NCBI GenBank assembly: GCA_000697335.1
Contig: JNEM01008732.1
Coordinates: 1 to 40,297, forward strand
DNA: 40,297 nucleotides
DNA from: Conidiobolus incongruus B7586
Lineage: Eukaryota
Direction: 5' to 3'
Shown here: piece by piece, positions 1,519-40,297 of the stretch
How positions within the stretch are numbered: position 1 is the first letter of the stretch
Layout: each line of letters opens with the position of its first letter
Position numbers and translations under genes: made by a program
The notes under the pieces: model-generated
Database searches by the model: none
What the model was told of the DNA's origin: nothing
What the model saw: only the letters and a program-made list of their open reading frames with translations

Positions 1519-2929
1519 AGCATATAATTTAAACATAAATCATTTGAATTAGTTTGAATTTCAACATTAAAAACTACAAATTATTAATTTTTATATAAAT
1601 ATCATCTTGCATAATTAATACCATTTATCTTATCTTTAAAGCTAATTAAACTGGTAAATAAAAAAATAATTCAAATAAGAATGTTAATTATTTTTGAAAT
1701 AATTCTTAATTATATTATATAATATTTTTTTAGTTAAGATACAAAATTATTATTTAAAACTTATAAATATATGTATATTTTTCGACATCTTATATTGATG
1801 AAAATATCAAATACTAAAAATTATTTAAAATTCATTATTAAAATATTTATATATAGATTTTTTTTACTAGTTTTTAATTATTAACTTTTCATCAAGTTTT
1901 AAAAAATTAAATGTTTTATCAATTATAATACTATAACTATTCATTGATAGTATAAATTTATTTTATTAAAAAACCAGGGATAAAATATAGTTGAATTTAA
2001 TACAATACAATTAGTAATGATTATTTTTATATAATTTATATTAAATATTTTATTTTATTATTCTAGATTTATTGCCATTAGTTTAATATCATTCAATACT
2101 TTTTATAATTTGTCAATTATTATAAGTCTAAAATTTACCTATTAATATAAAAAAAAGTTAAATATGAATAAATTTGTATATTATGAATTTATTTTATTAT
2201 ACTCAATTATAACATTTGAATTCATATACCAAAAATTAAAATGATTTAATAATTACAAAAAAATCCTATTTAAAAAAGATTTAAGGAAATAATGATAAAA
2301 TCATAAGTAAAATAAGATATTAAATTTGATTAAAATAAAGCTGTTCTTATAATTTATATTGATTATAAGAATTCTTATCACTATTTGATCAATGATTAGA
2401 TCAATTATCACTTGGGACAAATATATTTGGATATTATTATGTAATTATATTTATTTTGAAATAATATAACACTAATCACATTAATATCATGTTTAATCAA
2501 ATATACATATTTATATGTTTTTATTTCCAATATAGAAAAAAAGACAAATATCATTACATACTCTTGTATATTGGGATAATGATGGAAAAGTTAAAATCAT
2601 GTAAATTTTAAGTGGTATTAAGTTTTACCTAGTATTTAATATTTAGTTATATTTTTAAATAAAAAAACAATATCTAAAATTAATAAAAAATCAAAATATA
2701 TTTTATAAAAATCTATTCAAATCTTAAGAATAAAATTTTAAAATAATAAATTTAATATTAATAAAAGAAAATAATATTTGAGAATAAAATAATTGGAGAT
2801 ATTGAGTTAGAACTTAATTCAAATACTTTCTATTCTAAACTTTAATAAATTATAATATATAAAAGATTCTTTTTGAAGTTATCATTATTTACAAAAATAA
2901 GCTCTTATATTATTTAATTAATCTTTTTA

Positions 2930-3950
2930 AATATATATTTAAAAATGAATTAATAAAGCTTAAATTCCTTAATCCAAATATTGAAAAAAATAACTTAACT
3001 AAGGAGCTTAAAATATCTGTTTTAATATTAAAAATTGATTAATAAAAAAGTTATAATTGAGATTTAATAAAAATAAAGTGAAAAATTATTAAGAGTTAAA
3101 AATAGCTAGAAGGATAAAATTTATTTTTATTTTTAAATAAAAGTAAATCTTAATAATATGGTTTAAGATTTTAAAGAAAAATACAATTAATATGTTTTTA
3201 AGGTTATTATGGATAATATGTATTTAATGAATGAATAATCAAAAGCCAAATATTAAAATATCAAATCTTTTAAAGATAAATACCAACAAGTATTAGTAAA
3301 ACTTTGTAATATTCAATATATAATAAAAAATAATTCCTTGAAAATTTATAATATTATATTTTTTATATATAATAAATTATAATTTTTAAAATATAAATAA
3401 ATAAAATAAATTTTAATTATTTATTTATTTAATATATTGAAAAAATAATATTGACTATATGATTTATTATAAGGATATATTAATTAAAGGAATTATGTTA
3501 TTATTAAAAATTAGTTATAATTATTAATTTCAAAAAAATTAAGTTGGATGAACTTTATGTTGAAATTTTACTATTATTATCAAAAAAATAATAAAAAGGC
3601 TTCTAAATAAAAAAAATTAAAAAATCCTGGCCTTTGAGTTTAGTATAAAAACTCTAATAATAAACTACTCTTATAATTTATTATTTGTTAATAAAATATT
3701 AGGATAATTTATTGTCTTTATTTTGTTTATAAGTTAAAAAGTTACTAGCCTTAAAAAGAAATTTATTAAAATAATTTTTATAAAATAAGAAAAAAAAAGT
3801 TTAGAAGGTGAAAATTAAGTTTAAGAACTTTATAAATATGATGCAAAGAAACTTGTTAAATAGATTTTTAAACAGTATGGCATAATTTTTTAAGAGTTAA
3901 AAAATGATGAAAAACTGTTAAATAAATTCAAAATAAATATGAAAAAAATT
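2930..3950 (+). mobile_element. Possible highly degenerate DNA-transposon relic (HTH-like N-terminus; family unassigned)
   Basis: Extremely AT-rich but coding-like: KNELIKLKFLNPNIEKNNLTKELKISVLILK from 2941 (HTH-like), then ILIIWFK and IKSFKDKY fragments reminiscent of pogo/Tc5 DNA-binding domains after G->A/C->T change; many stops; no TIR identified. Confidence 0.3.
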
Positions 3951-4905
3951 TGTTGAAATATTCTCAATATAGAATAAACAAAGCTTTCTTATCAAAAAAA
4001 GGGAATACCTATGACACAAGGCAATTATTAGTGAAAAATAATACACATGTAAAATATGCAATAATTATATGTATTTGCATATATAACTCAGATAAAACAA
4101 GACTTAAATGACTTTAATATCATATAAAGAAAGATCAAACCATCAATATTACTAGAAACATAGTTCTTTGCTATCTAACAGTCAATTAAGCTAGCCTTCA
4201 AGGATTGACGTTGAAGCTTACCCCCTTAGAGCCTTTGAACTCAATGCAGGTCTTGGACAAGAGTGATCGAATTTGATCAACTTTGGATAATTTTGATTAT
4301 AAGCAAAAGATCTATGTATTTTTTTTAATTAATAAGAAACATTCATTATTTTGAAAATTTTTTATTAAATATTTTTATTAATATTGATCTATAAAGTTAT
4401 TAATTTATGAAAATATTCTAAATATATATAGTAAATTAAAACTACTCCAGATGACTCGAAAAGTTGATTCTTATTGATAAAATTTACATTATCTTAAAAG
4501 GAACGATTATCATAATATATCTCATCAATATTAGGATTCTTTAGTAAGTTATAGAAAATGAGTTTATCATAACAAATATTGTGTTTTGATTATTATTCTA
4601 TAAGAAATACAAATCGGACCTTAAAGTAAATTGAAATTTTTTAGAAACAAAATATTTGTATATGAATATATGGCCACATTGACTTTTCTTCAGACTTTGA
4701 CCATATAGTCTTAAGACTTTAAAATTTTGTTTAAATTAATATTAAATTATAAAACAATCTGTTTAAGTTAATATTTGATATTCAAATTTAGTAAATATTC
4801 ATTTCGAGTTTTTATTTAAATCCATTAATTTTCAAGTGATCAAAAACTCAAGTATACAAAAATAATTAATAACAAGTAGGTTTAAAATTAATTTATTCTA
4901 GTGAT

Positions 4906-4908
<3 letters not shown>

Positions 4909-4937
<29 letters not shown>
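4909..4937. repeat. (AT)n microsatellite
   Basis: Perfect AT dinucleotide run. Confidence 0.95.
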
Positions 4938-12639: not shown

Positions 12640-14378
12640 TTAACAAGTCATTCTCATTAATACTGCATCCAACTTTTGCAATAAGATATCTGCATGTTTT
12701 TTAGTAAAGATCAGAGCAGGTCTCAGACGAACTGAGCATTCACCACATCCAGCAATATTGATGCCACTATTTATCAATTTGTTTACAACTTTATCTCTCA
12801 TCCTCTGGTTAGGGAGGTCAAAAGCTAAAAATAAACCTTGACCTCTTGCATTCATTACGAATGGATAAGTCTTAGATATTACCTCCAATCCATTCAATAA
12901 ATGTTTTCCAGTTTCGCGTGCGTTAGTTAAAAGGTCCGATTTGTGGATTTCGTCAACAATTGCAATACTTTGGATTAAACGAACAGGATCGCCTAGCCAA
13001 GTATTAAAGTTTCTCCAACTTTGGGGAGGTCTCATTTCTAAATTATGGAAAAATCCAGCTGATTGAATTTTCTTTGAAAAGGTTACAAAATCAGGAGGTG
13101 ATGATAAGTTCCATGCTTCATGTGCCCACATCTGGCCAGTGGGACCCCCTCCAGTTTGAACCTCATCAACTATGAATGCAATATCATGGGCTTTAGTTAA
13201 TTCACGAAGTCCTTGGAAAAAGCTATGAGGAGCATAATTATCACCTCCTTCACTTTGAATGGGTTCGACGATAACTGCAGCAACTGGATATGGATAGGTT
13301 TTAATAATTTCAGCAGTTTCTTTCAAAGATTGCTGTACAGCAATTTCATTTTCTTTTTGATTCAAATGGAGTGGATATTTAACTTTAGGAAATGGTGCCT
13401 ATAATTAAATATTAATTAATGATAGTAAGTAATGCTAATTAATATAAAATTACTTGAGGCCAATTGAATGAGGGAATGTCAATCTTATGAAGATATTTAG
13501 TACGAGTAGTGGACAATGTACCAAGTGTACGACCATGGAATCCTTTCTTGAAACTAAGAACTGACAGATGTGGAGACCCAGGAGGTTGATTCTCCATACA
13601 TGATTCAATTTCCTCAGTAGTAAAATTAGAAGGATCAAATCTTCTCTTTTGTTTATATTTCATAAATGCAGCTTTGAAAGCTAGCTCATTGGCACTACTA
13701 CCACATAGAGCTAAAATACGCTTAGATTGTGAATATTTACATTAATTGAAATATTATTTACTTGGAAAGATTTGGTTTAATCCTTTAGGTGCTGTTTTAG
13801 TAAGAAATTCATTCAAGAGATTGCCCCATTCCTTGGGAGGATGAACGCCTAAACAAGATCTATTTGCCAAATAATCCTTAATTAATGGTTGATTCACTAA
13901 ATCGGTCATAGCAGGATGGTTATATCCCAATGGAATAGATGAGATCATACAGTAAGCATCTAATAACTTTAATGCTTAATGTTAGTCGACAATTCTGATA
14001 ATAATTAAATACAAAGACATATTATGTTAATGTCTTACCATATTCCCATCAACATCAGCCAAATAATTACCAGTTGATTTGTTTAAGTCTAATTTAATAT
14101 TTGATTAATATTATTATAGAATGATTATTATTATCATTGCTACCTGTAAAAAATGAAACAGCTCTGGGATCTTGATAGTTATCAAGCTCTTTTTTCATTT
14201 GTAAAGACTTGGGTCCAGGGATAGACGTGCTAACGATGGGTTCATTTGGTTCATAAAGTTGCAAGTGCTTCGAAACCGTTTGAAAACCTCTTAATTGATA
14301 TTTATTGATGTGATGAATATATTCACAAGATTTGTTAATTGCTAAATTTGGTTGCTTGATTAAACTTAATCTGACCAT
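12640..14378 (-). CDS. UGA1: 4-aminobutyrate aminotransferase (GABA transaminase), multi-exon, probable mitochondrial presequence
   Basis: Motifs SSIPLGYNHP, SFKKGFHGRTLGTLSTTR, IVEPIQSEGGD, IVDEVQTGGG, FSKK (PLP lysine), FNTWLGDP; basic N-terminal extension MVRLSLIKQ...LRGFQT. Confidence 0.93.
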
Positions 14379-15767
14379 AGTTCCTTTCAGATAGCTCTCA
14401 ATTATAATGTTCAGTAAATATCTTTGTATTCTTTGAAACGTGACTGATATTTTTATTGATTTGGTATTTTTTTAAATGGACAAGATCCTTTATATACCAA
14501 ATAAATTTCTAAAATTAGAATTAAAGAAAATTAACTGGATCAATGATATATAAAATGGAATTACTTTATCTATTATTTACAATCTTAAAGCATTTAAGTT
14601 CAATTGAATGGTGTAAATAACTTTATAAAGAAATATTATGATTGAATTATTTGTTGCAATGTTTGACTATATTGAAATAATTGTACTGTAATGGACATAT
14701 GGGTAATTTTGGAGGTTTAATTTGGGATTAGAATAATGATAAAACGTCATCAGAAAATGTATATGATCATATGAACAAATTATAAATCAAACCATTAATA
14801 TTTCTTTATTACAATCCATTTGAAAAATTAGATAATAAATCAGAATGTCACAGTTTTATTCAAAACAGATTAAATAAGGTAAATATAAATGTAAAACATA
14901 TTTCATATTGTTAAAATATCTGACACTTGTGAAATTTTCATGTATCAATCTAAATATTTGACGTTATTTCTGATTTTAAAAATATTTATAAATATAAGGA
15001 ATATTCTTAAATTTATCAAATAAATAGTATATTGGTATCAATTTATTAAAATTACAAAGATATCCATTCTTCCTAAAACATATTATTGGTCATGAAAATA
15101 AATTGATAAATATAAAGAGTTGATTTTATGTAAATATCATATTTGCATAGTTTGTGTTTATGTTTCCAGTATTTGTTACAATGCACTATATAATTTCCAT
15201 ATTATACATCAAAGCACAAAACCTTCAATTTAACTTACAATCATTAAATTTTTATATGAAAACCTAATTCGTGATCTTAGCTAATAAAATATTCAATGTA
15301 TCTTGGATTTCAAAATAATGTTTAATTCAAAATTGAGGGAAATGTTCTATTGTAAACTGTGTTGAAATAGAATAAATTTATATATTTTTATTCTACATAA
15401 CTTGAAAATATATCATAAGGATGTATTTAAGAATAGTTATAACCATTTTTATACCAATATCAAATATGGATGAAAATATATTAAGTATTCAGTTTTTTCA
15501 ATATTATTGATGTTCATATAACAAAAGAATTTGGATATTAATCATTATTCAATACCATTGGATTGGGAGTATTTTATGTATTGATTTTTGTAAATTAATT
15601 AACTAGTTCTTATTATATTATAACTTATTTGCAATTTTTTTACCAATACTCTATTCATTTTCAAAAAAGCCAAAATAATTCAGTTTTACACTAAAATTTT
15701 ACAAGATTAATAAAATCTATTTAAATCAGATGATATTTCACTATTAAAAATACTCTTTTTTATAAAT

Positions 15768-17057
15768 ATATTACTCTGTATTTTTAATAATAGGAATTTT
15801 TTGTGATTCAAAATAAATAAATAATTTAATATATAATATATAAAAATAAATATATAATATAGATTTAATAGTTTTTTTATTATTAATAACTTTTTGTTAT
15901 ACTTTTAACAAAGATTTAATACTTAAAAAATAATTCTTTTTATTAAAAACTAAAATTTGATGTTTTACAAACTAATTAAATTTTCTTATAGAAATTTTCT
16001 TTCTTGTAAACTAGTTTTTTAATTATCTAAAGTAATTATAATTATATAAGTTATAATCTAAAGAGTATACTAAATATAGTAGTTTTTTCTAATTATTTTT
16101 AATTAAAAAATTTTTTAAAGCTTTAAATTTATGTATTTTATAATTATCATGTAAAATAATAAGTTTTCTTAATTTATATTAAGAACACTAATTAAAAATA
16201 TTTTTATTTAAAAAAAATAATATAAAGTTTAATATTAATTAATTTTCTTTTAAAAACTAAATAAAAATAGTATATACTATTATAATTTATTATAATAATT
16301 AACATTTATTTATTAATAAAATATTTATTTAAAGGGATTTATAGAAAAAATTAATTTAACTTAATTTAACATTTTAATTTGTATTTTAATAAAAGATTAT
16401 ACATAGGGATTTAAGATTTATTAATTATAATTATTCTTTATAAAAACTTAAATTTTTAATAATATTTTAGTAAGTTTTATTTAATAATAATTACTTTAAT
16501 TTTTTTTAAACTTTATTTAAATTATAAGGTATTTATTTTATATTTTTATTTATTAATTTGAGTTTAAATTTTAATATATATAAAATACTTGTAAAACTAA
16601 TATTAAAGTACTTAGATAATTTTTTAACTAAAATAAAAAGGTGATTTTTAATATATTTTTTTACTTTATTAATAATTAAAAGAATAATAATTAAAGTTAG
16701 TTTTTTTAAATTTTAATTAGTTTTAAATAATTTCTTTTTTAATTTTAAAGTAATTTACCTAGTAATAAATTGTTAATTTAAATAATACTTTATTATTAAA
16801 AGTTGCTTATAAATTTTAAATAATTTTAAAGGATTTATAGTTAGGTTTTATTAATACTAAAATAAAAAACTTTTGATGATTACTATTTAGTTTAAATATA
16901 ATTAAATTAAAAAAAATATTATATATATATATATATATATATTAAAAATATATAATTTCCTATTAACTTTGTATATATTTATTTATTTCAAACTAATAAT
17001 ATGTTTGAAAAATCAAAAATTAAAAAATTTCCCATTACTTTAAATTTAAGGTAATAT
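15768..17057 (-). mobile_element. Full-length mariner (Tc1/mariner, DD34D) element, hypermutated C->T/G->A, dead
   Basis: Minus-strand translation ~16899-15860: FNNKVLFKLTIYY*VNYFK (HTH), K*IPYNL (=WIPHDL/WVPHEL motif, 16518-16538), RIIIINKS*IPMYN (=RIVTxDESWI), IILHDNYKIH, LLYLVYSLDYNLYNY (=LPHPxYSPDxxPxDY) and SIKSLLKV*QKVINN; exactly 34 codons between D2 (16146-16148) and D3 (16041-16043); imperfect 35-bp TIRs at 15768-15802 and 17023-17057 (26/35 identical); total length ~1290 bp. Confidence 0.92.
16920..16942. repeat. (TA)n microsatellite inside the mariner 5' non-coding region
   Basis: Perfect TA run. Confidence 0.9.
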
Positions 17058-18221
17058 TATAATAATGCTTAAGCATTTAAAATTTATATTGTTAATTAAT
17101 TTAAAAATCAAAGAAAATTATAATAAATTTACATTTTACATTTTGTATATTCAGATGTGAATTTATATTTGTTTGATTAATTTAATTATATTTGTTTTAA
17201 ATAGCTTGTTTATTATTATAATAATGAATTATTAAGCATATTTTCATATTTTTTATCTTAATAAATATATGAAAATTTTATTATTATATGGATTAGTTTA
17301 TATGAGTTTATTAATAAGTCAAATATTTAAAAAATGATTATTTTCAACTTAGTATTAATTGGAAATAGTTATATCAAGCTTATATTGAAATTGAGTATAT
17401 TATAACATGTGATATATATACTCTATCACCTCTCATTGATATAAATTAAAATAATTTTTTAAAGTATTATAACTTTAATAATAATAATAATAATAATAAT
17501 ATTTAATTCATTAAATTTATTGATTAAAACAAGGAAATCTTAGAAGTTTGTTGAGATAATTTGTTCGCTATCTAAATGACTTGAGTCAAATACAAGTCAG
17601 TAATATAATTTTGTAGACTTCACAATTTTTTCCAGCTGATCAAAAATTGACCGACACAAAAGACATTAAAACAATATCCGTATATTTATTTATATTTTTT
17701 GTAGTATTTTAAAGAATTTATTTTCTATAAAATCATTTCATTATCAGAAATCTAACATATTTAATGGGGCAAACTTCTCAGTGAATGAAAAAACATGTTT
17801 AAGATAATTTGGGTCACCATAAATGTGAAAAAGTGTGCAATTAAAATTATTCACACGTAGCAATTTTAATAAAACCAAATTATTTAAACTAACTTGGTAT
17901 AGCTTAAATTTTTTTATTAAAACATTGCATCATTCTTGCGCAATTTTTTTAAAGATTGATCCAAACTATCTTAAAAAAGGTATATACTGATAACAATTGT
18001 AATTAATAATCAAATATCCCATAATAGTAAAATTTAAAGATACCATGATAAATCTTTGTTACAGATTAGAATTCAAACGTCATTAATCAATGTATAATTA
18101 ATTATATTTAACTTATTTTCATATCACTAAAATATTATTTAAAATCGTTTAAAATTATTATCAATTAAACATTTAATCATTATTAAATATACCTTTTAGT
18201 TGTTTTTAATTTTAATTGAGT

Positions 18222-21200
18222 ATGACAGATAAAAATTTCCATTTAACAGACGAACAATATAAACAAATCGAAGAGAATAGAAAGAAAGCTTTAGAAAGGA
18301 AATATCAAACTCAATCAGGCTCTAATACTAAGGTTACGAGCCCTTTTTTCAGTGTCAATCAGTCCAATTCAAACAACAGTCCTTTAACAGCCGAACAATT
18401 GCAAATGATTGAAGAAAGGAGAAAACAGGCTTTAGAAAGACAGGCCAAGTCAAAGGGTTCAACTACAAAAACTTCCATTCAAAAGTCTATTTTGCACTAT
18501 TTTAAACCCCATGATACTCCTACTAAGTCCAACTCACCAGTATCCAATACTACACCTACAAAGCCCTCAGCCCAATCCAACTGTACGCAATCAAACCACA
18601 AAGTAGAACCTAGTTCTTCTATTACACCATCATCAAACTCACAATTCCAAAAACCCGCACTAGTCCACAATGAAGATACGGTATTTTAATCCATACCAAT
18701 TTGTAAAATATATATTTATACTAACAATGAAAATAGAAAATGGATGTCGATTTGGAAGATAATATTCCATTATCCACAACGAGTCGCAGAGCAAAAAGAA
18801 CAATTAATTACGATGGAAATGAAAGTGATTCTGATGATGGTATGCTATTAATCATCAACACACAAATAATTTTATGCTAACCCAATTTAATCAAGGTTCT
18901 AATCCACAATCTCTTAAAAAGAAATATAAAAATGATGATGAATTTCAAATTGATGAAGAGAGTAATATAGTGAGTATATAACTAATTACAATATTGCTAA
19001 CTATGCATTTAGCATTATCTTTCATGAATGAAATTGATTTCAATGATAACTTTTTGGAGGATGAAAAACCTAAATCTAAGCCTAAGTCTATGTCAACTCC
19101 TACTAAAACTTTTACCAGCAATTCTCAGTTTAGCGCTGGTTGGTTAGATGTAATATTTTATGAATTATCCTTATTTAGTAATGTGTTTACTTATTGGCTT
19201 CTTTAGAGTTTCAAATCTGCTGAAAAATCCAAATCTAACTCTGAACCAACAAAAGTCGTAGCTACTAATACTCAATCTAAGGTAATAAGATTAAATTCTT
19301 ATTAAAAATTGATCATTAAACATCAATTTTTTCAAAGATAAACTTTGGATTGTCAAGTAGCCAAAAAACTGGAAGTAATGAGAAAAATGAAGAACGCTAC
19401 CCATGGTTGGTTGATGTCAGAGATGCCAATGGCCGTCGTCCATCAGATCCTGAATACGATTCACGCACCCTTTTTATCCCAGATGCAGCCTACCGAAAGT
19501 TTACACCTTTCGAAAAGCAGTTTTGGGACATTAAAAAAGAAAATTACAATACTGTTATCTTCTTCAAAAAGGGAAAGTTTTATGAATTATACGAAAATGA
19601 CGCGGATATCGGTCATCAAAAATTCGATTTAAAGTTGACTGATCGTGTTAATATGAGAATGGTTGGAGTTCCAGAAACTTCACTTGATTTCTGGGCTTCT
19701 AAATTCATTGCCATTGGATATAAAGTTGGTAAGGTTGAACAAATGGAAACTGCTGTTGGTAAATCTATTAGGGAAAGGGATACAGCTTCGAAGGTACAGA
19801 ATTTATTACATTATCCTTCTATAATATTTAATGACTTGATTCTTGTATTTTTAGAAAAACAATGTCATTGAACGTAAATTGACTACCATTTTAAGTGCCA
19901 GTACCTTGGTTGATCTCGGATTATTGACCAGTGATATGGCTGTTTATTGTATGGCTATAAAGGTATAATTATGAAGTGATTTGTTTTCATAGAATTCTCA
20001 CTCAGAATGTTAGGAACAAATCAATCCCAATGGATCAGGTGGTAAATTTGGTATTGCTTTCGTTGATGCGGCAGCTGCAGAGTTCCATTTGGCTTCTTTG
20101 GGAGATGATGAGAATTTCACCAAATTTGAAACTTTAATTCTACAGGTTCAACCCACTGAAATTATTTATGCTAAAGTAATATCATCTTATTCATGTTAAT
20201 TTAATTCGTATTTAATCAATGTTCTGTTTAGGGATCTCTCAGTTTGAATACCTTAAGATGTTTAAGAAATAATTGTCCCAATTTAACCATGTAATATTAT
20301 ATTTTATTAAAAATTCAATTTTATATTAATCCTTGATTTAGGACACCTATTACTCCAAACAAAGAATTTTGGGATGCCAATAGAACCATTGAAGAATTTG
20401 AAAAAATGAATTATTTTGGAGATGATAGAGGTAATTCTTAGCATAATTAATTTAATTTTTATATTAACTTGAGTAATCAGACCAATGGCCCACTTCCTTC
20501 CTTGAATATATGAATGACGAATTGGTCATGTCAGCTTTGGGTGGTTTAACATGGCATTTAAGATATGTAAGTATTCTAATCATTCTTAAACTACAAATAT
20601 TCTCATATTTTTTTAGCTCAAACTTGATAAAGACCTATTATCCGTTAAAAATCTGAAAACATTTGATCCTGTAAAGAGCTTCGATACTCTGGTATTAGAT
20701 GGTCCTACTCTTAGTAATTTAGAAGTTTTAGCCAATAATATTGACGGAAGTAATGAGGGAACAGTCCATCAGCTGTTGAATCATTGTCTTAGTCCCTTTG
20801 GTATTATAAAATTTAATCATTCAATATTACCTATTTTTAACATACTATATATAGGTAAACGTAAATTTAGAAATTGGTTATGCCATCCGTTAAAAGATAT
20901 CGAGAAAATCAACGAAAGACTTGATGCTATTGAAGATATCGACAGATTGTACGAATTACAGAGTATTGGTACCAGACTTAGTAACTTCCCTGATTTGGAA
21001 CGTTTAATCACTAGAATCCACTCCAATTCCATTAAAGTCAAAGATTTCTTGAGTGTATTAAAGGGATTCGATGAAGCAATGGTAATCTATTTTATATTAG
21101 TTTAATTTCATTTTTCTTATCAAGTTTAGAAATTATTTGAAGAAATGAAATTACTTCAATCCCAATTCAAGTCCAAGTTGTTAATTCAGCTTTGTGAGAA

Positions 21201-23061
21201 TTTTCCTGATTTGGCTCAAAGATTGTATTATTTTGAACATGCATTTGATCACGATTTAGCTGCTAAAGAAGGTAAATATATATTACATTTTGTCATTCCA
21301 ATATCTAATTTTAATTACATAGGTGTAGTTATTCCTGCTCCTGGCTCGGATGAAGCATACGATCAAGCTCATCAAGCTGTTATTGATATTGAAAATGAAT
21401 TCGAACAATATCTATCTCAAATTAAATCTAAGTTGAAGTAAGTATATCAATCCAATCCTTTTACCTTACTAAACAATATTTTAGATGTCCTTCTATTGAA
21501 TATAAACATATCGGTAAAGATATTTATCAATTAGAAATACCTGCTTCAAAACAAGTTCCTAATGATTTTATTAAACATGGTCAAACTCAGGTAATTTTAA
21601 TAATTTTATTTATTAATAAATTTTTATATCGTATATTCCAATCAATAGAAAGTAAAGAGGTATTATACGCCTACTCTAGAAAACATGATCAAACGGTATA
21701 ACGAAGCAAAAGAGATTAAATCGAATGCAACAGCTACAGTATTAAATCGACTATGCCAAGCCTTTGATAGAGATTACCAGCAATGGTCCAAGATGGTCAG
21801 TTATTTGGCTACACTTGATTGTATCTTTTCATTGGCCAAGAGTAAATCTCTAATGGGAGGTAATTAATTTATCAATATTAAACATCAACTCATTAACTTT
21901 TTTATTAGAGCCTTGCGTTCGCCCTCAATTCTTCAATGAATCTAAGAGCTTTTTAGAAGTCAAAGATTTGAGACATCCTTGTGTCGTATCACAGTAATTA
22001 CCCCTATAGATTTCATTTATACTAGTGATTAATTTGGTTTTAGAGGAAAAGTGGACTACATTCCCAATGATACTTCTTTAGGAGGAAAGGAACCAGAAAT
22101 GATTTTGTTAACAGGTCCTAACATGGGTGGTAAATCCACCTTACTTCGTCAAGTAATTGTTATATTTTAAAAAATGAATATTATTTGTTAATCCCTATTA
22201 AATTAGACTTGTGTTGCTGTAATCATGGCACAATTAGGATGTTTCGTTCCTGCAAGTTCTTGTAAATTAACTATTTTTGATAGAATTTTCACAAGAATTG
22301 GTAATTTAAATATACTATTTATTCATATTATATTCAATTTACTCAACTCTTTTAGGTGCGAATGACAATATACTGGCTGGTCAATCTACTTTCATGGTAG
22401 AATTAAGTGAGACTGCTAAAATTTTAAAGGAAGCTACAAGTCGTTCTTTGGTGATTTTAGATGAATTGGGCAGAGGAACAAGTACTTTTGACGGGTAAGT
22501 TTATTTAGAGTTAATTCGACATATCTATATATAATTAATATTTATCCTGATAGATATGCAATCGCTTTTTCAGTACTTCACTATCTAACTACTCAAGTTC
22601 ATTGCTTGGGATTATTCTCTACTCATTACGGTATGTTAACAGAGGAAATGAAGGATCAACCCAACATTTCAATTAAACATATGAAATGCTTGGCTAATCC
22701 TAATCAAAGAGAAGTTACATTTTTATATAAATTAACACCAGGAGCTTGTCCTAAGGTATTATTAAAATTCGCTTTATATAATATAATATATTAATTATTA
22801 ATTTTAGAGTTATGGTATGAACGTTGCCAGTATGGCAGGAATACCCGAAAATGTAAATATATTTACGCTCTACATTTCTCAATAATACTAACATTCTATT
22901 ACATTCAGATTATTGTTAACGCGGAATTAGCAGCACAACAATTTGAAAAAGATCATCAAATTATAGTAGAAAATACCAATTTATCTGATGGTCAAAATGA
23001 GTATCAATTAAGTTTAATTGAAAAATCAAATTTTGCAAATTTAATGAGAAACTTATTATAA
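18222..23061 (+). CDS. MSH6: DNA mismatch repair protein MSH6, highly intron-rich
   Basis: PIP box [33 protein letters not shown] (Phe-X-Glu mismatch motif); Walker [49 protein letters not shown]; exons joined by many ~50-nt GT-AG introns; stop TAA 23059-23061. Confidence 0.95.
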
Positions 23062-26471: not shown

Positions 26472-28148
26472 ATGGCTAGATCTAGAAAGCACGCACGTGC
26501 TGGTAAAAAGAGACCAGTTTCTGAAATTGAAGAAAATAAAGAGGAAGAAATTAATAATGAACTCGAAATTGAAACCCAAGAACAACATGTTGAATCAACT
26601 GAATCTGAAATAAATGAAACTGAAGCTGTTGAAGATAAAGTCGAAGAAAAGGAAACTGAATCTTCTCAAAAGATTAATGGCAATGACAAGCCTTTGCCTA
26701 CCTCAACCACTCCTAAAGATGATTTAAATCTTGATTTTGCTTCCCTCGATATTTCCGAAAATACTTTGAAGGCTATTAAAGAAATTGGGTTCACTAAGAT
26801 GACCGAAGTTCAAGCTCGTACTATTCCAGCCTCCCTCTCAGGACGCGATGTTTTGGGTGCTGCTAAGACTGGTTCTGGTAAAACTGTTGCCTTCTTATTG
26901 CCTGCTATCGAGCTTTTGTACAAATTAAAATTTAAGCCTAGAAACGGAACTGGTATTATTATCATTTCCCCCACTAGAGAACTTGCTTTACAAATCTTTG
27001 GTGTTGCTAAGGAACTTCTCGCTCATCACTCCCAAACTTTTGGTATTGTTATGGGTGGTGCCAATCGTCGTGCTGAAGCAGACAAGTTATCTAAGGGTGT
27101 CAATCTTTTAGTCGCTACTCCCGGTCGTCTTTTAGATCATTTACAAAATACTCAGGGCTTCAACTTCAAAAATCTTAAAGCTTTGATTATTGACGAAGCT
27201 GATCGTATTTTGGAATGTGGTTTCGAAGATGAAATGAAACAAATTATCAAAATTTTGCCCAAAGAACGTCAAACTATGCTATTCTCTGCTACTCAAACCA
27301 CCAAGGTCGAAGATTTAGCTAGAATTTCCCTGAAGAAAGGGCCATTGTATATTAATGTCGATCAAAACAAAGAATCCTCCACTGCTGAAGGTTTAGAACA
27401 AGGCTATGTTGTCTGTGAGTCTGATAAGCGTTTCTTACTTTTGTTTACTTTTTTAAAAAAGAACTTGAAGAAGAAAGTTATCGTTTTCTTTTCCTCTTGT
27501 AACTCTGTCAAATACTATGCCGAGTTACTAAACTATATTGACGTCCCTGTCTTGGATCTTCACGGAAAACAAAAACAACAAAAGCGTACCAGCACGTTCT
27601 TCGAATTCATGAATGCTGAAACTGGTATCCTTTTATGCACAGATGTCGCCGCTCGTGGCTTAGATATTCCCGCTGTCGATTGGATTATCCAATACGATCC
27701 TCCTGATGATCCTAGAGATTACATTCACCGTGTCGGACGTACCGCCAGAGCTGGTAGCAAGGGTAAGTCCTTACTCTTCCTACTTCCCAGCGAATTAGGT
27801 TTCTTGAGATACTTGAAGCACGCCAAGGTTCCTTTGAACGAATACCAATTCCCGCCCAGCAAGATCATCAACGTACAATCTCAATTGGAAAAATTGATCG
27901 AAAAGAACTACTACCTCAACCAATCCGCCAAGAACGGTTTCCGATCCTACTTACAATCCTACGCTTCCTACGCTCTCAAGAAGATCTTCGACGTCAACGA
28001 ATTGGATCTCAAGAAGGTTGCCAAGGCCTATGGGTTCCCAGTCCCTCCTAAGGTCAATATTTCCATTGGCTCTAAAGAATCCGAAGAACTCGAAGAGAAG
28101 GCCCCAGGAAAGAAACCATTCAATCCTAATAAGAAGATTCGTCGTTAA
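26472..28148 (+). CDS. HAS1: ATP-dependent RNA helicase HAS1/DDX18 (intronless)
   Basis: [35 protein letters not shown] plus Has1-specific KFKPRNGTG and [20 protein letters not shown]. Confidence 0.97.
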
Positions 28149-32468: not shown

Positions 32469-33640
32469 AAATTTAGATTGAATAAAATATTTTCAAACAT
32501 ATATTATTATATTAAAGGAACTTACTATTTAAATAAAATCTTTGGAATTTTTTAAAAGAATCTTAATTTTATTACCTTCAAAAATTTTGAGAAAAAATTT
32601 TTTAACCAAATATATTTGAAAATTGTGTTATAAAGTTAATATTAATATATTATATTCAATATAAATTATGTTATATTATAAAAGTTTAATACTATGGCTT
32701 ATTATTAAAATGTAATCTATCTAATCAGCTACAACCAATTTAAAATACTTAATCTTTTATATTGCTTATTAGATAATTACGTTCGGAATTCAAAATTGAA
32801 TTCTAAAATCTATAAATTTTAATTAATATAGAATAAAAAGAAATTTAATAGTTGGATAATTATAGAGCTTGTCAATAAAATTTATACATATTAATTATGA
32901 GAAACGGTGTAATAATTGAATAATATTCGCTTTCGATGAATCAATTTTAATAGTCCTACTATTCCTTTAAAAGTTATCAAATCATTTTAGGTTTAGTATA
33001 TTATTAATTGATTCCTAAATTTGACTCCATGTCCGTTAATTGATCTAATTGATTATTCTCATTAAATTGATGGACATTTTAATTAATTGAAATACTATTA
33101 TACATAATGCTATTTTTATTTTAGAATTTGATTTGAAAAGTTAAAAAATGCTTATGAATATGATTATTTATATGCTTTCATAATCATTCTGATAATTACA
33201 TCGATATAATAATAAAAAAGTTTTCGATTTCATAATTAACAGTACTCCAAGTGGTTATCCACCAAATGATTAATATTCAATTGGGGAATTTGAAGAAAAA
33301 GGTAAGGATTGGCATTTGATAAATCGACTCAAAAGGAATGAATCTCAACTGAATCATTAACTTGCGGAGATAAGAATGTCTCTAATGGCAATTCCCGGTA
33401 CTCATCAAATAAGAGTTGAGCTAAGTTCAAACTCTAGTGAAGATATCATCCTCCACCTCCAATTAACCTAAAACTTTCCATATTTTGACCAATTCTTGGC
33501 CCTCGACTTCAGGACTTTAAATTCGAGTTAAATCATTTAGCCCAATTCGGAACTTGTGGAGTGTCGATTATAAATATTGAAAAGATACCATCATTACACT
33601 TCACACTATTTGTTCGTCCTTAGATTATATTAAAGTTAGA

Positions 33641-34303
33641 ATGAAGTTCAATTTATTGCAATTGATTCTTCTAGTCAATTCTGCATTCAGTAACTCTGTC
33701 ACTGATCTCAATGCACTGTGTCAAGCTTCGTGTCCGGGTGTCAAAAAATCCGAATCATGCACCAAAACCTGCATGCAGACTGGAGGATATGGCAATCCAC
33801 CTCCAGACCCTGATGCAATGAAAGCATGCGGGAACGACTACCACTGCTGTACCAAGGTAAGTCGAAGATGGCTTGGATATTCCGAGGAGCAAGTCAATTA
33901 TCTTAGCGATTTCGATAAGATCGTTGAAGTGTGTCAGGATCGATTGGATCATATAGAGCCCAAGTGCACGAAAGATTGCGAAGCTCAGGAGCTGCCCATC
34001 TATAGGAAATGCATTTCAGAATTAACTCAAACATCCGAAAATGCTTGGAATGATATTTATACCTGCGAAAACAACTGTATGAATGGAAAAGGCAATTTCA
34101 ACGAAGTGAGAGATTGTACATTTAACTGCAATCTCAGTATGTATAAATCTCTTAAAACCAGCGCTGCCGTTTCCGAAAAGCAGAATGGAGCAGCAGCAGC
34201 CGCTGGAGGAACTTCAGCAGCGTTTTCCATCCATTCAAAAGCCTTTACAAATCACAACCTCTTGATGGGGTTAGTTATTGGAGGACTGGTTATAATAGTT
34301 TAA
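33641..34303 (+). CDS. Secreted cysteine-rich, probably GPI-anchored surface protein (220 aa)
   Basis: Signal peptide MKFNLLQLILLVNSAFS; 15 Cys including five CxxxC pairs; small-residue omega region (GAAAAAGGTSAA) and a hydrophobic C-terminal tail. Confidence 0.85.
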   Translation: MKFNLLQLILLVNSAFSNSVTDLNALCQASCPGVKKSESCTKTCMQTGGYGNPPPDPDAMKACGNDYHCCTKVSRRWLGYSEEQVNYLSDFDKIVEVCQDRLDHIEPKCTKDCEAQELPIYRKCISELTQTSENAWNDIYTCENNCMNGKGNFNEVRDCTFNCNLSMYKSLKTSAAVSEKQNGAAAAAGGTSAAFSIHSKAFTNHNLLMGLVIGGLVIIV

Positions 34304-38252: not shown

Positions 38253-39203
38253 TTAATGAGTAAAAATATTTCTGAATATTCTCTTACATCGAGCTTGAAT
38301 TTTCACCATCAACAACATGAATTCATTGTTAACTTCAGGTTGAAATGTAATCGTTACGAGTGGGTTAAGAGTCATAGTTGCATGAACTAAAATAAATGTT
38401 ATCGCATCGATAATAGGCGTTCTTTGATATCCAATTGCATATTTTAAGATAAAAGTAACATATGATATACTGAGATTAGCATTATATACAAAGAACACCA
38501 TAATTATTTGTGCGATTAGCTTGAGTTTTTGGTTTTTAATAATTTTTAATAAATCATTATCCCCACTTATGATAGCGTCTTGTTTCGTCCTGTTAAGATG
38601 CTTATTAGCAACCCATCCAATTGAAAAGTAGCAAAATGTGGTGATCCAACATGGTATCATGAAGAATAAAGAGATTAAAATTGCCATAATTGAAGAAATA
38701 TAATTCCGTTTAGTAAACGGAAGGCAGGAAATTTTTGACACAGATGGGAGTCCATCATTAATAATCCAGCCATATAAAAAAATTCCAGTAGAAGGTGAAT
38801 TAGCCACAATAAAAACAAACAACCAGAATCGTAAGCTCTTTTGAGTTTTATAGCATACTATTAAAAACCTCAGGACTGACAAAATAGCAACAGTAGTAAT
38901 TTCAACTCTAGTTAGACAAAGAATAAAAAATGAGAAAAATTGACACCTGAAATTATCTTCCTCTAACCATAAGTAACCATTTATTAATTTTCCGACTGTT
39001 AGTGCAGTCAATACTTGTCCAGCAAACAATTCAATAAAACAAAACATTAATATTAGCTTAATTTCTGTTGATTTGATATTGCACTTTTGGATCAAGATAT
39101 AAATTATGAATACGTTTAATATTAAAATGATTATACCCATCACCAAAGATATGATATTAACCAAAAATTTGATAAAATTTAAATCATTAAAATAGAAATC
39201 CAT
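38253..39203 (-). CDS. Rhodopsin-like (class A-type) 7TM G protein-coupled receptor, intronless
   Basis: Seven hydrophobic segments; TM1 LILNVFI, TM3 C...LSVLRFLIVC (DRY-equivalent), ECL2 Cys (SCLPF), TM5 CYFSI, TM7 LNPLV; likely start MDFYFND at 39203. Confidence 0.85.
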   Translation of the reverse strand: MDFYFNDLNFIKFLVNIISLVMGIIILILNVFIIYILIQKCNIKSTEIKLILMFCFIELFAGQVLTALTVGKLINGYLWLEEDNFRCQFFSFFILCLTRVEITTVAILSVLRFLIVCYKTQKSLRFWLFVFIVANSPSTGIFLYGWIINDGLPSVSKISCLPFTKRNYISSIMAILISLFFMIPCWITTFCYFSIGWVANKHLNRTKQDAIISGDNDLLKIIKNQKLKLIAQIIMVFFVYNANLSISYVTFILKYAIGYQRTPIIDAITFILVHATMTLNPLVTITFQPEVNNEFMLLMVKIQARCKRIFRNIFTH

Positions 39204-39979
39204 TATTTGATATAAATAATTGTAAAGCAACAGTTATATTGCTATTCTGGTTTGAAATTTATTTATACACACTACAGTTTCAAATTAAGACCATTGTTTG
39301 ACGTTTGAATTCGTTAGCCATTTTGAATTATTGACTGTTTTACTAATTTCATTCACATCTAAATAAGGAAGTGGAGAACTGAAATGGCCAATTGCAGTGA
39401 GTTAACGTGATCACTTCTCGCAAATATTATGATACTTTGTCAACCAATTATTCTCAGTATCATAATATAAGATCTTTTAATCTGAAAAGTTCATCAAATT
39501 GTACTTTGACTTCTAAAATATAATCAAAGTTATTAAAGGTTAGTAAATTTTATTTATTTATATTATATAAACAGTTTAAAATCTTTTAAGAAATGTTTTT
39601 TAACTTATCTACTCTAGTAATTTAAGACAGTTGGATAACTAAATGATGAAATTATTCATAAGTTGCTAATACTCACTAATACACCCTAGCAAAAATGTTT
39701 GAGAAAGAGTTGGCTAATATTACAACCAATTAGAATTCTGTGGCAAACTCATAATTTGAACTCTACTAAACCTAGTAGATTATTTATAGATTAGTGAAAT
39801 AGATATAAGATAAATAATAATTTAACTCTGATAATTATAATAATATATTATTATTTATAGTTATTAAGATAATTTTTATTTTGTATTTGTGGAATTTAGT
39901 TAAAAAAATGATATTATTAATATAGGTTATTATCTTTATCTTTATCTATTTTTTATTTTTTATTCAAATATACTAATTA

Positions 39980-40297
39980 TTTAATCTTTAGATATATAAT
40001 AACTTTTATATTTTTAAACAAGTTCTTATCTTTTAATTTAGCTATATATCCCTTTTTCATAAAAATATTTTATTATTTTAATAAATTTTAAGAATTCAAC
40101 CTCTATTTATTTAAAATTTGAATAATACTTTTTAAAATGTTTTAAAAAATAAAAATCACTAAGTATAAAATTAAGAGAATATATTAAATATAAAAATCAT
40201 TTAAATTAATTATAAGTATAAAATATATAAAGGTTTAATTATTATATATAGATTTATATTATTATGATAATAATATATTAATTTAAATATTTATTTT
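39980..40297 (-). mobile_element. 3' part of a second hypermutated mariner (DD34D) element, truncated by the window end
   Basis: Minus strand: YYHNNINLYI (=HDNAxPHT), LYLIYSLNFILSDFYFLKHFKK (=PHPxYSPDLAPSDFxLF) and FYEKGIYS*IKR*ELV (=FYxxGIxxLxxRWxxV); D2-D3 distance 106 nt (35 codons plus a 1-nt slip). Confidence 0.85.

Follow-up and report, generated by a model that had tools for sequence, protein, structure and literature searches.

Genes and features of the locus

The window, i.e. the whole stretch of 40,297 nucleotides that was analysed, contains an AT-rich element flanked by two genes that are read away from it, one for a class III aminotransferase (12640-14471, minus strand), the other for a MutS-domain mismatch-repair protein (18216-22800, plus strand). 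Further along lie a HAS1 helicase gene, a 240-aa cysteine-rich frame (33581-34303), hydrophobic at both ends and without a match in Pfam, whose product is possibly a surface-anchored protein, and an intronless gene for a rhodopsin-family 7TM receptor (38253-39233; PF00001, E 1e-8). The features on which the following sections draw are:

15768..17057, minus strand: full-length DD34D mariner relic (~1.29 kb, 10% GC, 0 CpG, positive RIP indices)
15768..15803, plus strand: probable 3' terminal inverted repeat arm (TA at 15769-15770; 26/36 identity to the other arm)
17022..17057, minus strand: probable 5' terminal inverted repeat arm (TA at 17055-17056)
15870..16890, minus strand: decayed transposase coding region (~340 codons, four frame pieces)
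16420..16422, minus strand: catalytic D1 position (now AAT; 100% of the relatives have D at this column)
16146..16148, minus strand: catalytic D2 (GAT intact, LHDN motif)
16041..16043, minus strand: catalytic D3 position (now AAT; D2-D3 spacing of 34 residues)
26475..28148, plus strand: HAS1 helicase gene (host marker and normal-composition control)
39987..40205, minus strand: candidate second hypermutated mariner, C-terminal part, from a subfamily other than that of the first (YSPDLAPSDF type; the remainder would lie beyond the window end)

HAS1 lies 9.4 kb from the element and has a GC content of 40% and a CpG o/e of 0.90. Its product is identical to the Conidiobolus coronatus NRRL 28638 protein at 438 of 448 positions, and in a single-marker tree that took in 22 of its 120 matches it falls in a Conidiobolus clade (100/99), itself nested in Entomophthorales at 100/99. 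Ascomycete names are absent among the 120 matches listed. Judged from this gene, the host is an entomophthoralean of the Conidiobolus lineage, close but not identical to NRRL 28638, in line with the first-pass annotation, which had placed it outside Dikarya and proposed a HAS1 phylogeny as the check. A Pezizomycotina host is ruled out by the same placement. A metagenome scan with the aminotransferase exon returned six distant loci (41-52% identity), none of them an orthologous site, and a word search of sequencing runs listed no RNA runs.

A mariner transposase readable through C>T changes

The element has a GC content of 10.0% (129/1290), compared to 20.0% and 18.4% in its flanks, contains no CpG across its 1290 nt, and is devoid of stop-to-stop frames of at least 100 aa. 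We aligned this DNA, by a frameshift-aware codon model, to a profile of 20 mariner transposases. The model that allows C>T and G>A changes scores 240 bits over 341 steps (16890-15870), compared to 28 bits with transversions (at most 30 when C>A/G>T is allowed), a comparison in which the transition model holds a slight advantage because the profile members were chosen, as the top scorers among 109 proteins, by transition-aware score. A mutation-free model gives 16 bits, the wrong strand 16.5, and 20 shuffles 16.4 ± 1.8 (maximum 19.3). A direction-agnostic alignment to a 15-sequence profile, which overlaps the first, follows the same path and yields the same estimates. Three one-base slips occur along this path (near 16706, 16499, and 16220), all of which coincide with runs of 7-8 T or A; a codon is also absent near 15989.

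The D,D34D triad and the positions of the W-I-P and Y-S-x-D motifs align, as expected for a DD34D mariner. At 64 columns, at least 75% of the relatives share the same residue; of these columns, 25 are intact, 32 are reachable by C>T/G>A alone, and 7 require some other change; all six conserved Trp codons are now TAA or TAG. We thus recover what had been read from the letters alone, namely a ~90% AT block without open reading frames, which aligns codon by codon with a mariner transposase over ~350 aa and whose lost motifs (including D1 and D3) are restored largely by reversing transitions, with the missing codon as an addition.

Database searches agree with this identity. The C-terminal minus-strand piece, with X at stops, matches only SETMAR or Mos1 in the PDB (5/5 matches, E 0.014-0.34); read through its stops, it finds 10 matches among 1.8 billion representative proteins, and the nine that were retrieved are all mariner transposases or fragments, the mariner matches starting from E 6e-8. 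The top match P0125 (23 stretches) was left out as a probable low-complexity match. Pfam identified none of four element pieces as transposase, a scan of viral contigs with the mariner alignment yielded 0/21 candidates, and three homologue searches returned neither an intact close relative nor a fungal-named member. For the best single relative, C>T/G>A changes are enough to reach 150 of the 263 codons aligned. The element shares with the DD34D mariners Mos1 and SETMAR/Hsmar1 the D,D34D spacing, the WVPH-like and YSPD motifs, and, judged from its probable ends, a length of ~1.29 kb and TA flanks. Unlike them, it belongs to a divergent group with the motifs IAIDESW and YSPDxNPxDYN, in which the named members found here come from Neodiprion sawflies, and its gene is dead.

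Mariners are typically ~1.3 kb long, with short terminal inverted repeats and a TA duplication. The two terminal arms of the element, 1.29 kb apart, are identical at 26 of 36 positions and match at 31 of 36 in a purine/pyrimidine alphabet, with TA on both sides, although TA is common anyway in 90% AT DNA. Alone, the arms are not significant (p = 0.064, 6.4% of 500 null pairs scoring equally high), yet they agree with mariner length and position and are probable termini. The 512 inverted-repeat pairs returned by a repeat finder are mostly chance in DNA of this composition. A (TA)n microsatellite occupies 16918-16942 in the 5' untranslated part of the element, and a similar run is found near 4910-4937.

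Mutation spectrum

The maximum-likelihood estimate over 339 codons, with an ancestor inferred from distant proteins, is that 0.77 (0.73-0.81) of the ancestral C:G pairs underwent C>T; the upper bound is 0.01 for both C>A and T>A, and 0.025 for T>C. The second, overlapping profile with the direction-agnostic alignment gives 0.75-0.79 for C>T and bounds of 0.015 for both C>A and T>A, and 0.03 for T>C. This corresponds to ~1.5 hits per C, compared to at most 0.03 for other substitution classes. A C:G>T:A rate far above all other changes, as in canonical RIP, is thus what we observe (0.77 vs at most 0.015-0.03). The claim of the first-pass annotation, a massive C:G>T:A change in one direction that affects both strands and non-CpG contexts, is borne out, other classes staying at or below 1-3%.

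We applied the same estimator to held-out simulations (4 proteins, 4 scenarios, and 5 replicates). For drift-like spectra, it returns on average 0.04-0.17 for C>A and 0.04-0.08 for T>C. Drift would therefore have been noticed, as simulations with transversions return them on average, even if the minimum for C>A was 0 in one scenario. The drift simulations end at 16-20% GC, compared to 10% in the element.

Two features suggest some age. Four indel events are found in ~1 kb, and the ten mismatches between the terminal arms comprise five transitions and five transversions; the latter appear to exceed what a background of at most 1.5% predicts, unless the arms were imperfect originally.

Sequence context of the lost cytosines

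The converted fraction depends on the 3' neighbour and is 1.0 for CpG, 0.83-0.90 for CpA, 0.65-0.79 for CpT, and 0.28-0.56 for CpC, where the CpG value is indistinguishable from a CpG-poor ancestor and all rates depend on the codon prior that was assumed, given the distance of the closest intact relative. Four context rates outperform a single rate (2dLL 39-46). A 5' A reduces conversion about twofold (ApC vs TpC, CpC, and GpC; 2dLL about 27), and the strand difference is small, with a factor of 1.3-1.4. The raw counts of residual CpA:CpT agree with the modelled rates: they are 21:73 in the element core, 244:142 in the flanks (p about 1e-12), and 1304:940 in pooled intergenic DNA (p = 7e-12). 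Therefore, the context is broad, as first proposed, though ranked (CpG > CpA > CpT > CpC) and halved by a 5' A rather than flat. CpA leads the non-CpG contexts, even if CpT and CpC are also lost and CpG is gone; saturation flattens such preferences. These rates also dispose of deamination restricted to CpG, which is insufficient because it would remove just one of the two pairs of each CpG, and 65-90% of CpA and CpT were lost.

The sparing of ApC relative to TpC, CpC, and GpC, together with pure C>T on both strands, is what an AID/APOBEC-type cytidine deaminase, acting on transposon DNA independently of methylation, might leave. Uracil repair, however, tends to yield C>G or C>A by-products, both absent from the element, and the strong 3'-neighbour effect and small strand bias also argue against such an enzyme, which we consider very unlikely.

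Confinement to transposon relics

RIP indices were computed in 500-nt sliding windows, and only 4 of 160 pass both thresholds. They span 15751-17000 and have composite indices of +0.71 to +0.97. The next-highest values, +0.35 and +0.40, come from the final two sliding windows of the contig, over the second relic; elsewhere, only three are positive, by just 0.02-0.19. A change-point analysis likewise places a CpA/TpG-poor segment at 15810-16970, within the element, with low GC extending rightward to about 17530. The element is AT-richer than all five intergenic stretches tested (p 1e-12 to 0.019) and therefore overshoots the local background rather than decaying towards it.

Ordinary neutral decay under AT-biased mutation, an alternative raised in the first-pass annotation itself, would draw on the 14-20% GC of the intergenic DNA. 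It is contradicted by this overshoot, by the reversal of the intergenic CpA:CpT ratio in the element, and by the near-nil transversions and T>C changes, which simulated drift produces; we reject it as scarcely credible. The same ratio speaks against the earlier suggestion that the process builds AT-rich intergenic DNA in general, the pooled intergenic value being on the opposite side of unity from that of the core. As for the neighbouring genes, they did keep their C and G, as had been stated (exon GC 29-40%), but their CpG is not uniformly kept, with o/e values from 0.33 to 0.90.

The near flanks of the element are CpG-poor, with 1 and 0 CpG per 500 nt, as though CpG methylation had spread past its ends. 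In the intervals 15300-15767 and 17058-17500, CpG is absent and CpA/TpG are plentiful.

A second mariner, at the end of the window, appears to carry the same signature more weakly. It scores 39.3 bits under the transition model, compared to 17.8 under the transversion model and a maximum of 22.4 in 100 nulls; with the second profile, it scores 31.6 bits against a null maximum of 20.2, on only 22 codons. Its C>T estimate is 0.81, with wide bounds given these 22 codons, and the surrounding 39900-40297 has 10.1% GC, no CpG, and a CpA:CpT of 10:25. With the first profile, its tile scores 35.6 bits and three GC-richer gene tiles score up to 39.1, so we treat this relic as supporting and not decisive. 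The adjoining 39500-39800 shows CpT above CpA, no CpG, and 15-29% GC, which is possibly leakage or another element.

The 1.3-kb stretch at 2600-3900 (13.6% GC, 0 CpG, CpA:CpT 57:96, plus strand rich in purines) resembles a third relic that is less saturated than the others. It has no match in Pfam, in the PDB (two frames of 2500-4100), or to the mariner profiles, and Pfam searches on the second relic and six frames of 2500-4100 gave 0/7 matches. The purine/pyrimidine 3-periodicity is powerless, even on the known element. Altogether, the signature is restricted to ~3 kb of the 40 kb, comprising the two transposon relics and one further stretch.

The distribution of the signature also bears on an element hypermutated in an ascomycete and imported dead, or a chimeric contig. 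Tc1/mariner transfer between fungi is reported to be frequent (bioRxiv 2025.06.16.659975), and the homologue searches gave no close intact relative that would point to a donor. Nevertheless, the signature occurs in two unrelated mariners 23 kb apart, and CpG loss reaches into the host flanks. In addition, four runs of one sample contain 85-87% of the sampled words of 13100-23000, although these may be the source data and not independent. We find import or chimerism highly improbable.

Comparison with known hypermutation systems

RIP, which depends on RID/Masc1 in Neurospora crassa and other Pezizomycotina, shares with the element C:G>T:A changes limited to transposon DNA, on both strands and with few indels, CpA as main non-CpG target, and a positive composite index. 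Unlike RIP, the element resides in an Entomophthorales host, has no CpG, and has heavily lost CpT and CpC. The Dim2 mutator of Zymoseptoria tritici, reported to act without a sexual cycle (PMC8016269), has in common the dominance of C>T in transposon DNA and the preference for CpA among non-CpG sites. That study gives over 98% of changes at CpA, with CpG spared; the element, with 0 CpG in 1290 nt and its CpT and CpC lost, does not show this near-exclusive CpA pattern. The TpCpG/CpG hypermutation of Pucciniomycotina (PMC3318451; PMC4352252) is likewise a C>T excess outside Ascomycota without RID, with CpG on top. As far as these sources describe them, the Pucciniomycotina signatures are CpG-only, whereas the lost cytosines of the element are mostly non-CpG, with conversion at 28-90%. 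The context of the element matches none of these three signatures exactly, and it is RIP-like in outcome.

The closest precedent is the index signal of Zoophthora radicans and other Entomophthoraceae, in the same fungal order and with the same proposal (PMC11105155). By the composite index, RIP reaches 24.2% in Z. radicans and lies at 2.4-5.7% for three relatives, and the authors argue, with caveats, that RIP may act in Entomophthorales (PMC11105155). In its accessible part, that study uses dinucleotide indices only and reports no value for C. coronatus; our spectrum was gauged on conserved codons, in the Conidiobolus lineage. Novelty is therefore below what was first claimed, since RIP in Entomophthorales had already been argued from indices; the part that stands is the alignment-based spectrum, none having been found for Conidiobolus in the literature searched, where most subscription papers are outside coverage.

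Evidence on both sides also exists for true RIP, i.e. a premeiotic process triggered by homology pairing and dependent on an enzyme of the RID/Masc1 type, which Entomophthorales would have either inherited from an ancestor or acquired. Among non-CpG contexts, CpA ranks first and CpT second, as reported in Magnaporthe, Botrytis, and Sclerotinia (PMC4352252), indices are positive only at the element and the second relic (apart from the three marginal sliding windows), and the Z. radicans index value points in the same direction. However, CpG is wholly gone and CpC is also struck. RID was not found in the Entomophthorales lineage, according to the accessible parts of PMC5751038 and PMC11105155, the candidates of the latter study being 12-14% identical to RID. 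We judge true RIP improbable. To us, the element is a real and unusually clean example of a transposon hypermutated in a RIP-like manner in a host outside Dikarya.

A proposed methyltransferase-coupled mutator as the best explanation

The explanation that we favour, at about an even chance, is that a transposon-targeted C-to-T mutator, probably linked to a cytosine methyltransferase, converted ~77% of the C:G pairs of the mariner. The element would have been silenced after insertion, and an enzyme of the DNMT1/DIM-2 family would then have acted on the silenced chromatin, turning cytosine into thymine at a rate at least 50 times the background. Repeated rounds might have followed until near saturation, as with Dim2 during mitosis in Zymoseptoria, and the new A/T runs might then have slipped (or were misassembled). 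Targeting to repeats is suggested by the two transposon relics compared to the surrounding unique DNA. The CpG-poor near flanks match the prediction from methylation.

In Z. tritici, a functional dim2 is reported to raise the number of mitotic mutations more than tenfold, with C>T making up over 95% (PMC8016269). Entomophthorales are reported to carry PF00145 genes (PMC11105155), and Dim-2 to occur in early-diverging fungi (PMC7862722). The accessible supplements of PMC11105155 gave no match for PF00145 and the two orthogroups, and nothing was found in the literature on Conidiobolus DNMT classes. Counting against the mutator are the CpA specificity of the Z. tritici enzyme, compared to the broad spectrum of the element, the transversions between the terminal arms, and the age suggested by the four indel events.

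The main competitor is passive decay, in which dense methylation in all contexts and spontaneous 5mC deamination drained the cytosines over a long time. It needs no new enzyme activity, it accounts for CpG being the first to vanish and for CpG-poor near flanks, and the four indel events and arm transversions suggest the age that it calls for. Spontaneous mCpG decay, however, gives about a 10-20-fold excess, and the element would require near-complete non-CpG methylation with an excess of at least 50-fold over all other substitutions. In early-diverging fungi (Phycomyces, Linderina), 5mC is reported to be located in repeats, but to be scarce in Zoopagomycota (PMC11258239). We hold passive decay to be unlikely, though worth serious attention.

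Implications for early-diverging fungi

RIP-like mutagenesis outside Dikarya is contested in print. The argument from indices in Entomophthorales (PMC11105155) stands against a survey of 1,239 genomes, which reports RIP-like signatures as unique to ascomycetes and scores C. coronatus as no_rip (PMC12543289, 2025). According to the accessible text of that survey, the annotated repeats of C. coronatus are not enriched in AT-rich 4-mers (0.87-1.03), which we count against a mutator, and it gives no repeat pair of at least 1 kb above 95% identity; this dearth of similar pairs could be due to mutation or to assembly collapse. To this debate, the locus adds a spectrum that is anchored on codons and independent of indices.

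We tentatively hypothesize, with slightly less than even confidence, that an active transposon mutator independent of RID operates in a Zoopagomycota fungus, with a broad context of its own (CpG > CpA > CpT > CpC, ApC spared), and is efficient enough for its victims to escape repeat annotation, k-mer surveys thus scoring the lineage as RIP-free. Indeed, saturated relics may escape repeat-based surveys. The question becomes testable in a culturable lineage with small genomes, compared to the repeat-filled Entomophthoraceae genomes of 0.5-1 Gb. If this reading is true, the lineage would possess a transposon-destroying mutator of a kind proven so far only in ascomycetes, and repeat-directed mutagenesis would either be older than Dikarya or have arisen once more.
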